Sequence record: PQ818761.1
DNA from: Escherichia phage EcoM2
Reading direction: 5' to 3' (one strand)
Length of the DNA stretch: 64,000 nucleotides
In this document: one piece after another, positions 23,405 through 41,402 of the stretch
Numbering within the stretch: position 1 is the first letter of the stretch
Layout of the letters: each line of letters begins with the position of its first letter
Program-made: the position numbers and the translations under genes
The notes under the pieces: generated by a model
Seen by the model: the letters and a program-made list of their open reading frames with translations, nothing else
Databases searched by the model: none
Told to the model about the DNA's origin: nothing

Positions 23405-23431
23405 AAAATAAAAAAGGCTCCCGAAGGAGCC
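23405..23431 (-). terminator. rho-independent terminator (minus strand) downstream of lysozyme
   Basis: GGCTCC-cgaa-GGAGCC hairpin followed by a T-run on the minus strand. Confidence 0.6.
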
Positions 23432-23441
23432 TATGAAGATA

Positions 23442-23906
23442 TTACTTTGGATATACACTGTCAAGATAAATGTCAGCTTCCATTCTACGTCTGTTTTTCA
23501 GTCCGTTTGAAGTGACCTTCTGACCTTTGACTGTAACCTTGTTCCACCACTGCATAGCTTCTGCACAACCTACCTTATTACCAGCATTGTGGCGCTTGAT
23601 AAATGTAGAATCCTGCATAGCTGTGATACCGATGTTGTATGTTTCACTTACAAGTGCATCGAACTCATTCTGAGAGGTTGGAACCTTGATAGCTTTATTC
23701 ACTGCTGCAACGAACTTCTCAACATCTGCAAGAAGATACTGTTCAGCTTGTTCAGCAGTAATTTTCATACCCATCTTAACAGGTTTTCCGTCAATACGGA
23801 TTGTACCATACCCAATTGTCGGGATTCCGGCAGAGTCTTCGTAAGCCTCTAACTTCAGACCTTCGAAGAACTTAATAGCTTCTAAACCTTTTCTTGAGAG
23901 TTGCAT
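23442..23906 (-). CDS. phage lysozyme (T4 e-type, GH24 endolysin)
   Basis: 154 aa; GH24-like motifs EGLKLEAYEDSAG-IPTIGYGT and NIG. Confidence 0.75.
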   Translation of the reverse strand: MQLSRKGLEAIKFFEGLKLEAYEDSAGIPTIGYGTIRIDGKPVKMGMKITAEQAEQYLLADVEKFVAAVNKAIKVPTSQNEFDALVSETYNIGITAMQDSTFIKRHNAGNKVGCAEAMQWWNKVTVKGQKVTSNGLKNRRRMEADIYLDSVYPK

Positions 23907-25039
23907 TATGCCTCCCCTGCTGGGTTAACTGTAACTGTTGCCGCATTAGATGTTACAGAACCACCTGCGCCAGTCACTACACAGGTGTAGCTTCCTGCAT
24001 CAGCAGCGGTTGCACCTTCTTTGGTGTAAGTTGCAGCAGTTGCATCTGGGATGACTTCCTCACCTTTCTTCCACTGATAACCTGTCGCACCTGTTGCCAC
24101 AACATTCAGTGTTAAGGTCTCACCTTCAGTGATTTCTTGATTGGTTGGTTGCTGAGTGATTACCGGAAGTGCATTCACAGTAACTGTTGCAGGGCTAGAA
24201 GTAACAGAACCACCTGCACCTGTTACAACGCAAGTGTATGAACCTGCATCTGCTGGCAGAGCACCAGACTTGCTATAGGTAGCGTTTGTCGCTGAAGGAA
24301 TGTCAGAGCCATCTTTCTTCCACTGGTAACCTGTCGCACCTGTTGCAGTAACTACTAAGTTGATGTTTCCACCTTCATTAATAGTCTGATTAGAAGGTTG
24401 CTTGGTAATCACAGGTAGTGCGTTCACAGTAACTGTTGCTGCATCTGAGGTAACACTTGTTCCACCCTCTCCAGATACAACACAAGTGTATGAACCAGCG
24501 TCAGAAGGTGCTACTGACTGTTTTGTGTAAGTTGCAGAATTGGCACTAGGGATATCCTCACCATCCTTCTTCCACTGATATCCAGTGGCGTTAGTTGCTA
24601 GAATGCTTAGAGTAAGTGTGCCACCCTCATTGACTGTTTGACCTGTTGGTTGCTGAGTAATTGCTGGTGGCTTAATAGCATCCTTCAACTTAGCATTCAA
24701 CATTGAGAACGGCTTAACTCTTGCCAACCATTCACAATACACTGTGTCAACGTCTTTACCATTGATGATTGCATACTGTAAATCCATGAAGAAATCAGCA
24801 GTCCTCATCTGTGCACCAACACTGTAAAGGAGTTCATCACTAAAAGGAACTTTGTAGTCTGGTTTGTAGTCAAACTTCGCAACCTCTGCAATATCAGCTT
24901 CAGGCCAATATGAGCTATAGGTTAGCGGTAAAATAGCTTCTTGATATGTTCTAAAATCATATCTCTTACCAGCCTTTACATTTGCAACGAAACCTTTTAC
25001 AAATTCTTTGAAGTCTGGGTAAGTCTTTGCTTTAATCAT
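23906..25039 (-). CDS. Ig-like repeat protein (N-terminal domain plus three tandem Ig-like domains; Hoc-like surface protein candidate)
   Basis: 377 aa; three ~80-aa repeats each with PVITxQP...GATGYQWKKDG...AGSYTCVV; N-terminal ~120 aa paralogous to adjacent 123-aa ORF. Confidence 0.55.
   Translation of the reverse strand: MIKAKTYPDFKEFVKGFVANVKAGKRYDFRTYQEAILPLTYSSYWPEADIAEVAKFDYKPDYKVPFSDELLYSVGAQMRTADFFMDLQYAIINGKDVDTVYCEWLARVKPFSMLNAKLKDAIKPPAITQQPTGQTVNEGGTLTLSILATNATGYQWKKDGEDIPSANSATYTKQSVAPSDAGSYTCVVSGEGGTSVTSDAATVTVNALPVITKQPSNQTINEGGNINLVVTATGATGYQWKKDGSDIPSATNATYSKSGALPADAGSYTCVVTGAGGSVTSSPATVTVNALPVITQQPTNQEITEGETLTLNVVATGATGYQWKKGEEVIPDATAATYTKEGATAADAGSYTCVVTGAGGSVTSNAATVTVNPAGEA
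23909..24652 (-). repeat. three tandem ~240-bp repeats encoding Ig-like domains
   Basis: Near-identical protein repeats visible in translation. Confidence 0.6.
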
Positions 25040-25407
25040 TTCTTTTTAGCCTCTAAACGTGCGTTTAATCTAAAATAGCCTTTATGTTGTGGAGACACAT
25101 CACTAACAACAATACCTTCAACTTTATAGCCCTTACCAATTACATACTGGATATCCATAAGAAACGTACCAAGCCCAACAATGTGGAACATTGGGTATAG
25201 TAACTTATCTGAATCTGGGAGTTTAATTTCTGGTTTATAGGTAGGTTGTTCGGCAGTTGGTGTAATATCTTCTTCAGGCCATTTGCTAAGTCTCCATGTT
25301 AAAGGTGATGCAATAACATCGTTAAGATTATATCTCTCACCTTTCTCCACGGAATTAATATAGGATTGTAGGAAGCAATAAAAGTCTTTTGCACTCTTAG
25401 CCTTCAT
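25036..25407 (-). CDS. hypothetical protein, paralog of the N-terminal domain of the Ig-repeat protein
   Basis: 123 aa; shared motifs (YKPxxKxPxSDxLLY, FxMDxQYxI) with residues 1-120 of the downstream gene. Confidence 0.5.
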   Translation of the reverse strand: MKAKSAKDFYCFLQSYINSVEKGERYNLNDVIASPLTWRLSKWPEEDITPTAEQPTYKPEIKLPDSDKLLYPMFHIVGLGTFLMDIQYVIGKGYKVEGIVVSDVSPQHKGYFRLNARLEAKKK

Positions 25408-25454
25408 TAAATATCCTTATAAATAGATAAAGGGGCATTAGCCCCTGTTTATAC

Positions 25455-26045
25455 TTAAGCTTTGGTCTTAAGTAGGTTCTTAAGTTTTTTGAGATTCATG
25501 CTCTCGTCAAACTTAAAACCAAATCCATTGACATAATCAATGAACTCGGATTTCTTACTAAGTGATAGTGCGTAACTCATATCAAAGTTATTACTTGTTT
25601 CTGCGTCTGGACTAGAGTTCACATCAAATGAAATCTCTGTAGGCTCTTGCTTGCTACTTCTCATATTATCAATCAATAGACAGGTATAGTTCGCTGGATA
25701 GAAGTTAACACTCCCATCAACATACCCATACTTATTATTATGAATAAGGTTTGAAAACACCTTAAGAAATGTTTCTGAGTCGTGGCATACAAGTTTGAAT
25801 TGACTGCATTCTCCAAGAGCCACTAAAGAGTAAGGACTCTCACTATCAATGTCATAGTTTGGATTTGATGTTGTAACCGTCACACGCATCAAGTTATTAG
25901 CAATAGTCTTCTGCTTGAAAGAATTTGGGACATAGTGAAGACCTCTATCACACTGATTAACTAGCTCTTTCAATAGGTCATTTGCATATGGTGAATTAAT
26001 TGATACAGAGCCATCACTATTATAATTAAAACTTACTGTTAACAT
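25455..26045 (-). CDS. hypothetical protein
   Basis: 196-aa ORF. Confidence 0.55.
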   Translation of the reverse strand: MLTVSFNYNSDGSVSINSPYANDLLKELVNQCDRGLHYVPNSFKQKTIANNLMRVTVTTSNPNYDIDSESPYSLVALGECSQFKLVCHDSETFLKVFSNLIHNNKYGYVDGSVNFYPANYTCLLIDNMRSSKQEPTEISFDVNSSPDAETSNNFDMSYALSLSKKSEFIDYVNGFGFKFDESMNLKKLKNLLKTKA

Positions 26046-33155: not shown

Positions 33156-33230
33156 TAGTCCAAGTAGCTTATATGGTTAAAGCGCGTGTCTGAAAAACAT
33201 GAGAAGAGGGTTCAAATCCCACTGGACTAC
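33156..33230 (+). tRNA. tRNA-Phe (anticodon GAA)
   Basis: Acceptor TAGTCCA/TGGACTA; anticodon stem CGTGT/ACATG loop CTGAAAA; T-loop TTCAAAT; 3' CAA (CCA not encoded). Confidence 0.55.
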
Positions 33231-33248
33231 CAATTTCAAAGGTGCTTA

Positions 33249-33983
33249 ATGAAAGAGATGACAGAACAAGGTAAGGAGATTTTTAATCTCTTAAAAACCG
33301 GTAGAGGGTTTTCTAATCCCCTTATTACTGGTGCAGCAGTTCTAGGTGGAACCGTAGCTGCCTCTACATCACTTGTAAGCTCTATTAGCTCTGTAACAGA
33401 CCCTACAATAAAGGATAAGCTTGTTGCCGCTGGACTGACAACAGTTCTGCTTAACAGCTTTACAACGAGTCTGACAAGCACTACATCAACTACTAAGACA
33501 TTGACAGATTATGGTCAAAAGTCTATTGATGAGTTTTCCTCACGTATGCAGGTAGCAAAAGGCTACTCCAATGTTATGGGTGCAGCAGGAGAGCAAGTTG
33601 GTTGTACACCATTTAGTGGTATTATGGGTGTTGCTACAGAGTATGGTCAAAAAGCTATTGACACAATTAACAGTGCACTAGACGGTGTTAATGATGTATT
33701 AAGTGACTTACAAGATGCTATTGATAAAGGTCTTGATACTGTTTCTGATTTAGCTAACCAAGCTGTTAGTAAGATTAATGAAGGTATCTCGAAGATTACA
33801 GCTTATGCAGATGAAGTTGTGCAGATGATTGAAGAAGAAGCTGCCCTTATTGCAGAGTACCTTAAAACGAATATCAATGGGTTCTTAGCAGGTATCTTAC
33901 CAGACTGGTTTGATGATGCTTGTAAAACTGGTGTAATTGACACTATTGCAACACCAGAAATGAAGAACGCATTACAGAAATAA
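33249..33983 (+). CDS. hypothetical protein (Ser/Thr-rich N-terminal region, acidic helical C-terminus)
   Basis: ATG 33249 with AAAGG RBS; track ORF start 33186 rejected because it overlaps tRNA-Phe. Confidence 0.5.
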   Translation: MKEMTEQGKEIFNLLKTGRGFSNPLITGAAVLGGTVAASTSLVSSISSVTDPTIKDKLVAAGLTTVLLNSFTTSLTSTTSTTKTLTDYGQKSIDEFSSRMQVAKGYSNVMGAAGEQVGCTPFSGIMGVATEYGQKAIDTINSALDGVNDVLSDLQDAIDKGLDTVSDLANQAVSKINEGISKITAYADEVVQMIEEEAALIAEYLKTNINGFLAGILPDWFDDACKTGVIDTIATPEMKNALQK

Positions 33984-33984
33984 T

Positions 33985-34077
33985 GGAAGATTAACCCTAA
34001 AAGGTAAGGGAGCAGTTTGCTAAACTGCCAGTAGCTGAGAAATCGGTGTACCAGTTCAAGTCTGGTATCTTCCTCCA
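33985..34077 (+). tRNA. tRNA-Ser (anticodon GCT), class II
   Basis: Acceptor GGAAGAT/ATCTTCC; D-arm CCC-TAAAAGGTAA-GGG; anticodon stem GCAGT/ACTGC loop TTGCTAA; ~21-nt variable arm; T-arm ACCAG-TTCAAGT-CTGGT; CCA encoded. Confidence 0.6.
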
Positions 34078-34081
34078 ATTT

Positions 34082-34157
34082 GAATCCGTGACAGAAATGG
34101 CTATGTGCCTGTCTGCAAAACAGGTTTATAAGGGTTCGAGTCCCTTCGGATTCTCCA
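34082..34157 (+). tRNA. tRNA-Cys (anticodon GCA)
   Basis: Acceptor GAATCCG/CGGATTC; anticodon stem CCTGT/ACAGG loop CTGCAAA; T-arm AAGGG-TTCGAGT-CCCTT; CCA encoded. Confidence 0.6.
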
Positions 34158-40298: not shown

Positions 40299-41402
40299 AT
40301 GTTGACTAATTCTGAAAAAAGCAGATTTTTCCTTGCTGACCTGACTGGTGAAGTCCAGTCTATCCCAAATACTTATGGGTATATTTCCAACTTAGGTCTG
40401 TTCCGTTCAGCACCAATCACCCAAACTACTTTCCTTATGGACTTGACTGATTGGGATGTTAGCTTGCTTGATGCGGTAGACCGTGATAGCCGTAAAGCAG
40501 AGACTAGCGCACCTGAGCGTGTTCGTCAAATCAGCTTCCCAATGATGTACTTCAAAGAAGTTGAAAGCATCACTCCTGATGAAATTCAGGGTGTACGTCA
40601 GCCAGGCACTGCAAACGAGCTTACTACTGAAGCTGTAGTACGTGCTAAGAAGCTGATGAAGATTCGTACCAAGTTCGATATTACTCGTGAGTTCCTGTTT
40701 ATGCAAGCTCTGAAGGGTAAAGTTGTTGATGCTCGTGGTACTCTGTATGCTGACCTGTACAAGCAGTTCGATGTTGAGAAGAAGACTGTTTACTTCGACC
40801 TTGACAACCCTAATGCGGATATCGACGCTTCTATTGAAGAACTGCGTATGCACATGGAAGATGAAGCTAAGACTGGCACTGTAATCAACGGTGAAGAAAT
40901 TCACGTAGTTGTTGACCGTGTGTTCTTCAGCAAGCTGACTAAACATCCTAAGATTCGTGATGCTTATCTTGCACAGCAGACTCCGCTGGCTTGGCAACAG
41001 ATTACTGGTTCTCTGAGAACTGGTGGTACTGACGGCGTTCAGGCTCATATGAACACCTTCTACTACGGTGGTGTTAAGTTTGTCCAGTACAACGGTAAGT
41101 TCAAAGACAAGCGCGGTAAGGTTCACACTCTGGTGAGCATTGATGGTGCAGCAGCAACTGTTGGTGTTGGTCATGCCTTCCCTAACGTTTCTATGCTGGG
41201 TGAAGCAAACAACATCTTCGAAGTGGCTTATGGTCCATGTCCTAAGATGGGTTACGCAAATACACTTGGTCAGGAACTGTACGTATTCGAATACGAAAAA
41301 GACCGTGACGAAGGTATTGACTTCGAAGCTCACTCTTACATGCTGCCATACTGTACTCGTCCTCAGTTGCTGGTAGATGTTCGTGCTGACGCCAAAGACT
41401 AA
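40299..41402 (+). CDS. major capsid protein (putative, HK97-like)
   Basis: 367 aa directly after protease/decoration genes; typical size and position. Confidence 0.6.
   Translation: MLTNSEKSRFFLADLTGEVQSIPNTYGYISNLGLFRSAPITQTTFLMDLTDWDVSLLDAVDRDSRKAETSAPERVRQISFPMMYFKEVESITPDEIQGVRQPGTANELTTEAVVRAKKLMKIRTKFDITREFLFMQALKGKVVDARGTLYADLYKQFDVEKKTVYFDLDNPNADIDASIEELRMHMEDEAKTGTVINGEEIHVVVDRVFFSKLTKHPKIRDAYLAQQTPLAWQQITGSLRTGGTDGVQAHMNTFYYGGVKFVQYNGKFKDKRGKVHTLVSIDGAAATVGVGHAFPNVSMLGEANNIFEVAYGPCPKMGYANTLGQELYVFEYEKDRDEGIDFEAHSYMLPYCTRPQLLVDVRADAKD

Follow-up and report, generated by a model that had tools for sequence, protein, structure and literature searches.

The DNA analysed here, referred to as the window, is a stretch of 64,000 nucleotides from Escherichia phage EcoM2 (sequence record PQ818761.1; all positions are those of the whole window). 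Its source is a Felixounavirus, a Felix O1-like myophage, and the region described below is 92-96% identical in DNA to many Felixounavirus genomes. Three minus-strand genes lie there end to end, encoding proteins of 123, 377 and 154 amino acids (aa), in this order (Table 1). The stop codon of the first gene and the start codon of the second share the sequence ATGA, and the stop codon of the second and the start codon of the third share one nucleotide (TAATG). The initial annotation of the locus described the 123-aa protein as a paralogue of the first ~120 aa of its 377-aa neighbour, three Ig-like repeats behind that N-terminal domain, and a lysozyme gene alongside; all three were found again, the 123-aa protein aligning over its whole length to residues 2-119 of its larger neighbour (36% identity, BLASTP E 2e-18). 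The 377-aa open reading frame (ORF) very probably encodes Hex-Dec, a decoration protein of the hexamer centres of the phage head, and the 123-aa paralogue an old, truncated copy of its anchor.

Table 1 Features of the Hex-Dec locus and the major capsid protein gene in the EcoM2 window.
Feature	Position	Strand	Basis
Stand-alone paralogue of the capsid-binding domain (CapBD), 123 aa, 14.2 kDa, phrog_4463	25036..25407	-	BLASTP to CapBD, PHROG, AlphaFold2 (AF2) model/Foldseek, ratio of non-synonymous to synonymous substitution rates (dN/dS)
Hex-Dec gene, 377 aa, 39.6 kDa (computed mass)	23906..25039	-	ORF; PDB 9NCF_S, 9C2D_S; phrog_3995 E 3e-207
CapBD, aa 1-122	24674..25039	-	Alignment to solved chains
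Ig-like domain 1, aa 125-208	24416..24667	-	Pfam Ig_3/Ig_2/I-set; orthologue of Bas63 Ig1
Ig-like domain 2, aa 209-291	24167..24415	-	Pfam, unit boundaries; orthologue of Bas63 Ig2
Ig-like domain 3, aa 292-372	23924..24166	-	Pfam, unit comparison; orthologue of Bas63 terminal Ig4
Endolysin, 154 aa, PF00959 phage lysozyme (Pfam E 9e-41)	23442..23906	-	Next gene downstream of Hex-Dec
Hex-Dec Shine-Dalgarno GAGG, within the 3'-terminal part of the paralogue ORF	25050..25053	-	Junction sequences
Terminator-like hairpin immediately before the paralogue	25431..25446	-	Felix O1 terminator t38; annotated in AYO145A
Terminator-like hairpin after the endolysin, closing the three-gene block	23415..23432	-	Felix O1 terminator t35; annotated in AYO145A
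Major capsid protein (MCP), Hex-Dec binding partner, ~15 kb off	40299..41402	+	PDB 9NCF_A E 2.4e-247, 9C2D_A E 5.4e-233

Identity and capsid anchor of the 377-aa protein

The 377-aa protein matched two decoration proteins of solved structure: Hex-Dec of phage Bas63 (PDB 9NCF chain S, 460 aa; phmmer E 6.6e-286, residues 1-372 aligned) and gp20 of phage Sf14 (PDB 9C2D/9C3A chain S, 372 aa; phmmer E 1.8e-168). The first 123 aa were ~96% identical to those of Bas63 (~5 of 123 positions differ, counted by hand in the printed alignment), and the CapBD shared 88% identity with its counterpart in Sf14 gp20. Its equivalents are Felix O1 gp36, Sf14 gp20 and Bas63 Hex-Dec, and homologues were present in more than 240 phage records. 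In a T=9 head studied by cryo-electron microscopy (cryo-EM), the N-terminal CapBD of ~120 aa occupies the centres of those hexamers that are pentamer-proximal. Hex-Dec, a name taken from the Bas63 paper, is there a monomeric decoration protein with one copy per asymmetric unit, whose Ig-like domains reach outward from the head and are flexible, without resolved density; the 3-fold hexamers carry no Hex-Dec, and neither reconstruction showed density on other hexamers (PMC12609058, PMC11821841).

The residues that hold this anchor are retained in EcoM2. Arg79 and Arg107 of Sf14 gp20 form salt bridges to Asp221 of the MCP (PMC11821841); R79 and R107 are both present in the translation of the window gene, and the window MCP is near-identical to the Bas63 MCP (9NCF_A), with D221 kept in the alignment. 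Mass spectrometry detected the homologues in virions of Sf14 (PMC11821841) and of Felix O1 (gp36, 44% coverage, listed mass 31.6 kDa; PMC3185647). The virion location and the mass spectrometry evidence are those of the Bas63, Sf14 and Felix O1 homologues, and the EcoM2 protein is placed among them by sequence. The initial annotation had guessed at a Hoc-like capsid decoration protein and had proposed virion presence and conservation as its check; the guess is borne out by the match to chains seen at the hexamer centres, and the check by the homologues in the Felix O1 and Sf14 virions and across the phage records. The Hex-Dec finding is itself already published, in two 2025 structure papers (Sci Adv, PMC12609058; Commun Biol, PMC11821841). 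By extension, the EcoM2 CapBD would be monomeric and fill the centre of each pentamer-proximal (facet-edge) hexamer, at ~60 copies per T=9 head, and the three acidic Ig-like domains would form a flexible fibre pointing outward from this anchor. For the pseudo-C2 lobes of the CapBD, no underlying internal sequence repeat was detected, the two halves giving no alignment.

A different location is suggested by the databases: phrog_3995 and many GenBank records carry the label 'tail protein', the original Felix O1 paper called the homologue a 'major tail protein', and the Ig region matches PHROGs of Ig-bearing major tail proteins. However, these tail-PHROG matches are confined to the Ig region, two independent cryo-EM reconstructions put the N-terminal domain of the homologue at capsid hexamer centres, and the Bas63 paper explicitly describes the tail annotation as an error (PMC12609058). 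A tail protein is consequently extremely improbable.

The closest known system is that of Bas63 (Escherichia phage JohannRWettstein), with the same gene in the same genus and genomic position and with orthologous Ig1, Ig2 and terminal Ig domains; it differs in having four Ig domains and 460 aa, compared to three and 377 aa in the window. Sf14 gp20 (Shigella phage, Mooglevirus) is an orthologue with three Ig domains and with R79 and R107 conserved, and its neighbours are those of the window (gp21, a small paralogue, upstream; gp19, the endolysin, downstream); its Ig units are only 53-77% identical to those of the window. T4 Hoc is also alike in several respects (monomer at hexamer centres, string of Ig-like domains, acidic, non-essential, variable domain number; PMC12609058, PMC11821841), but its order is reversed, with the Ig domains N-terminal and the anchor C-terminal, whereas in the window the anchor comes first. 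The Hoc anchor is topologically distinct (PMC12609058), no sequence similarity between it and the window anchor was detected, and Hoc occupies all hexamers while Hex-Dec occupies only the pentamer-proximal ones. The matches to PHROGs labelled 'Hoc-like' were limited to aa 120-306, in the Ig region. The resemblance to Hoc is functional and architectural, and not one of family membership. T5 pb10 (PDB 5LXK, 8ZVI) has a single Ig domain, which matched aa 132-207 of the window protein (E ~3e-12); no similarity beyond the Ig domain was detected.

Ig units and their turnover

Residues 125-372 consist of three units in tandem, 84, 83 and 81 aa long, in which the Pfam families Ig_3 (E 1.4e-32), Ig_2 and I-set were each recognised three times. 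The units are mutually 69-73% identical in protein and 67-69% in DNA; the term 'near-identical' used for them in the initial annotation does not hold, and the repeats are therefore too diverged to be the assembly artefact against which it had cautioned. Tandem Repeats Finder, run on 23800..25500, did not report the Ig array, whose units have diverged too far for it, and gave a trivial 9-nt repeat alone; the 249/252-nt register of the units was recovered by a repeat search. The Ig region has a net charge of -10 and an isoelectric point of 4.3, and that of Bas63 is likewise acidic (PMC12609058). Its best non-phage match in the PDB (query 23924..24667) was the Aureispira grappling-hook protein GhpA (9FLP, E 1.4e-75, 14 stretches), which scored far above the eukaryotic Ig proteins listed.

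The number of units varies among relatives, published counts ranging from 1 to 4 (PMC12609058). One unit was found in FO1a (211 aa), in SP116 (210 aa) and in many 210-aa metagenomic proteins; two in REP7 and Tf (293 aa), in SUSP2 (294 aa) and in fKMPT1; three in the window, AYO145A and Sf14; and four in Bas63. Unit-by-unit comparison showed that Ig1, Ig2 and Ig4 of Bas63 correspond to Ig1, Ig2 and Ig3 of the window, Bas63 Ig3 being the one missing. FO1a, a phage of the species Felix O1, carries a one-Ig Hex-Dec of 211 aa (locus L007, 2869..3504), and the 31.6 kDa listed for gp36 of Felix O1 corresponds to the size of a two-unit protein (PMC3185647), indicating that copy number varies within one species.

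The junctions show how units are exchanged. The first Ig unit of REP7 and Tf (loci L001 and L002, 2498..3379 in both) is a chimera, its N-terminal half resembling window Ig1 (identity 0.92/0.86) and its C-terminal half window Ig2 (0.97/1.00). The switch point lies at the conserved motif ATGYQWKKDG, which is one of the two DNA stretches recovered in all three units (repeat family D2). The chimera is direct evidence of in-register unequal recombination with the loss of one 249-nt unit, and Ig units are gained and lost by in-register recombination between copies that are ~68% identical. Comparison of repeat copy number among related phages, which had been recommended from the start, thus yielded both a range of one to four units and an in-register mode of change.

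The stand-alone paralogue and its origin

The 123-aa protein matched the solved Hex-Dec homologues (phmmer E 7e-14 and 2e-11) and, over its full length (1-123 of 123), phrog_4463, a family of unassigned function (E 8e-78); Pfam and NCBIfam gave no match. Compared with the CapBD it is 36-38% identical in protein and ~57% in DNA. Its equivalents are Felix O1 gp37, Sf14 gp21 and VpaE1 ORF40c, and its homologues in Felixounavirus, Mooglevirus and Suspvirus are 74-100% identical. Structure prediction, another check recommended at the outset, agreed in fold: the AF2 model (predicted template modelling score 0.69) matched only 9ncf_S and 9c2d_S in a Foldseek search of the PDB (probability 1.00, TM 0.63). 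The confidence of the model was moderate, with a predicted local distance difference test (pLDDT) value of 66.

The paralogue is a real gene under purifying selection. Its dN/dS against relatives is 0.08-0.16, its length keeps to 122-124 aa even in lineages with as little as 46% identity, and the block LLYPMFHIVGLGTFLMDIQ is kept in 10 of 10 aligned paralogues; the protein evolves ~2-4 times faster than the Hex-Dec anchor. The start codon is conserved, as is the Shine-Dalgarno sequence (TAAGGA in the window, AYO145A, FO1a, SUSP2 and Sf14; AAAGGAG in the metagenomic contig L008). The capsid-contact positions differ from those of Hex-Dec: the position of R79 is Gly in all 10 aligned paralogues, and that of R107 is read as Gln or His in different alignments. 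The two missing arginines speak against binding in the same mode at the mature site. A transmembrane or holin-like role for the segment MFHIVGLGTFLMDIQYVIG was considered and is unlikely, as it contains Asp and Gln, has a Kyte-Doolittle mean of ~1.3 (calculated by hand) and forms the core helix 79-91 in the AF2 model.

The pair formed by the paralogue and Hex-Dec occurs in Felixounavirus (FO1a included), Mooglevirus (Sf14) and Suspvirus (SUSP2), and also on L008, of 87 kb, whose two proteins are 46% and 57% identical to those of the window. Its presence in three genera and in a diverged metagenomic lineage shows that the duplication is old, and together with the low identity between the paralogues contradicts the 'recent duplication' of the initial annotation. 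The probable direction of the event is indicated by outgroups. Erwinia phage phiEa21-4 (Kolesnikvirus; gp38) and Yersinia phage P778 (ORF016) have one fused gene, made of the anchor and a beta-sandwich domain, in the same slot as in the window, flanked by the 196-aa gene and the endolysin; no small ORF was found in that slot, and fused proteins of this type have no stand-alone paralogue upstream. The CapBDs of gp38, ORF016 and the metagenomic proteins P0101-P0105 are homologous to that of the window (profile E 3e-8 to 3e-4), while their C-terminal module differs (one Big_2-type or some other beta domain, or a tail rich in Lys and Ser). When 1.84 billion representative proteins were searched exhaustively by profile, the CapBD family proved very small, with 13 members; most of the distant members carry, on reading their sequences, a C-terminal Ig or Big_2-like module. 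Word-indexed protein searches gave, among the matches listed, close relatives only.

In a neighbour-joining tree the paralogues formed one clade (100% bootstrap) nested among the fused proteins, with an internal branching that mirrors that of the Hex-Dec clade; the position of this clade relative to Kolesnikvirus had a bootstrap of 34%. Because the outgroups phiEa21-4 and P778 have only the single fused gene, the fused CapBD-Ig form is most likely ancestral, and the 123-aa gene is probably a partial tandem copy of the 5' part of the fused gene. The fusion of a duplicated domain to Ig repeats by accretion, as originally proposed, is accordingly not upheld.

The Hex-Dec gene is not part of the structural module; it immediately precedes the endolysin gene, an order common to Sf14, SUSP2, FO1a and AYO145A. 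The two hairpins that bracket the block correspond to terminators in Table 2 of the Felix O1 paper (t38 and t35; PMC3185647). The hairpin upstream of the paralogue (GGGGC-N4-GCCCC), with the 196-aa gene on its other side, has a terminator score on either strand and is only ~20 nt away from the Shine-Dalgarno site of the paralogue; a promoter scan between the two found no sigma-70-like promoter. The question of how such a block is transcribed is also raised, in general terms, in the Felix O1 paper (PMC3185647). Further away in the window, 25 tRNA genes are clustered at 28699..34157 (+), as is typical for Felix O1-like phages. Ahead of this cluster lies a 471-aa ORF (27118..28533) in which Pfam recognised DUF2828 and DUF7788, and which is annotated in relatives as 'RNA-binding protein'. 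A record named 'Staphylococcus phage SA1' contains the 123-aa gene at 99% identity, together with the remainder of this Felix O1-like region; its host is probably misattributed, or the sequence is a contaminant.

Possible roles of the paralogue and of the fibre

The published data on the paralogue concern its transcription and its absence from particles. ORFs 36 and 37 of Felix O1 both reach maximal transcription at 60 min (Table 3 of PMC3185647), and gp37 was missing from the virion proteins while others of 9.7-13.7 kDa were identified (PMC3185647). According to the main text of the VpaE1 report, gp54, gp58 and gp68 were the only virion proteins that the Felix O1 list lacked, from which it follows that ORF40c was undetected there. 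The Bas63 and Sf14 cryo-EM papers (PMC12609058, PMC11821841) do not mention a CapBD paralogue; the UAB_Phi87 paper contains no proteomics, the wV8 paper says nothing on decoration or paralogue genes, and the Citrobacter rodentium Felixounavirus paper says nothing on decoration proteins.

The gene has also been lost. About 20 of the 252 phage records have no intact 123-aa gene, and in all four of those checked (REP7, locus L001, 2306..2497; Tf, L002; SP116, L012; fKMPT1, L013) the same 192-bp gap replaces it, indicating a single inherited loss in a viable clade. In REP7 this gap is the remnant of a decayed paralogue, with ~238 bp deleted, the start codon lost and the 3' end kept together with the Hex-Dec Shine-Dalgarno sequence. 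Given that this clade is viable with an intact Hex-Dec, a role of the paralogue in Hex-Dec loading cannot be obligatory. Altogether, the paralogue is most likely a selected, dispensable late protein and not a stable component of the virion.

Other explanations of the 123-aa gene were weighed against this one. It might encode a second, Ig-less decoration protein, located on the 20 hexamers at the true 3-fold axes, which are free of Hex-Dec, or competing with Hex-Dec to set the density of fibres. The CapBD fold with its many shared polar residues would fit, as would late transcription together with Hex-Dec from ORFs whose stop and start codons overlap; but there was no density on other hexamers in either structure paper, the Felix O1 and VpaE1 virion proteomes contained smaller and rarer proteins without the paralogue, and both capsid-contact arginines are replaced. 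A decoration protein of this kind is unlikely. An equally unlikely explanation is that the ORF is a functionless leftover, kept for the ribosome-binding site of Hex-Dec and for help in its translation. The absence from virions, the overlapping codons and the clade that lost most of the ORF while keeping its last ~70 nt, GAGG site included, all fit such a leader, and TTAGAGG before Hex-Dec is kept in the window, AYO145A, FO1a, SUSP2, Sf14 and the REP7 remnant (CTAGAGG in L008). Nevertheless, the low dN/dS extends over the whole ORF, and the length and the block noted above are maintained in the diverged paralogues; since the protein sequence itself is conserved, the gene is not a mere leader cistron.

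The overlap could also serve a programmed -1 frameshift at AAAAAG, producing a fusion of the paralogue and Hex-Dec with two anchors. The sequence GCT AAA AAG AAA TGA precedes the paralogue stop in the window (25040..25053, minus strand), AYO145A and FO1a, and the Hex-Dec frame is the -1 frame and is open from AAAAAG, two codons before that stop. By contrast, Sf14 (GCTAAGAAATGA) and L008 lack the shifty sequence, Hex-Dec of SUSP2 lies in the other frame, the 31.6 kDa recorded for Felix O1 gp36 is the mass of that protein alone, and the solved chains begin at Met1 of Hex-Dec. The frameshift fusion was rejected as a most remote prospect, neither the slippery site nor the frame relation being conserved outside Felixounavirus, and AAAAAG before the paralogue stop is probably coincidental.

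For the paralogue as a selected, dispensable late protein, any specific role can only be proposed tentatively. By inference alone, our best guess is a role within the infected cell, where it would act either on capsid hexamers or on the loading of Hex-Dec. It is possible, though doubtful, that it is a functional non-virion late protein acting on capsid hexamers during head assembly, for which two forms can be imagined: it might be a transient plug or placeholder at the hexamer centres of the procapsid, or alternatively a factor restricting Hex-Dec to 60 of the 80 hexamers. For the Hex-Dec fibre, the comparison with T4 Hoc suggests weak adhesion to surfaces or mucus, or a control of particle aggregation, an even chance in our judgement; by the same analogy Hex-Dec is probably non-essential.

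Several points speak against the interpretation given here. No function has been demonstrated for Hex-Dec in any Ounavirinae phage, and both structure papers leave its role and its essentiality undecided (PMC12609058, PMC11821841); the adhesion role comes from the Hoc analogy alone, with a protein of opposite domain order and unrelated anchor. As regards the paralogue, its absence from virions is drawn from negative proteomics of 2010 and 2015 and from the silence of the structure papers, and its AF2 model, at pLDDT 66, is only moderately confident. It retains K2, K4, D8, R25, E45, D47, D85 and N115, all shared with the CapBD, so that capsid binding is still possible. Finally, REP7, Tf, SP116 and fKMPT1 are viable without it, with the Hex-Dec ORF intact and, in REP7, with a CapBD nearly identical to that of the window.

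The structure-based identity of the 377-aa protein corrects a widespread 'tail protein' misannotation, and adds nothing new about the window itself. In-register recombination of Ig units at the GYQWKK motif is useful knowledge for display engineering on therapeutic or diagnostic phages. An ancestral fused protein would reverse the account of domain accretion: the small gene would derive from the large one. The anchor-only paralogue, as an old and selected copy, gives a cheap and testable way into the question of how only a subset of the hexamers comes to be loaded with Hex-Dec. If the proposed role of the paralogue were true, the anchor of a decoration protein would have been recruited as a regulator of assembly or of occupancy.

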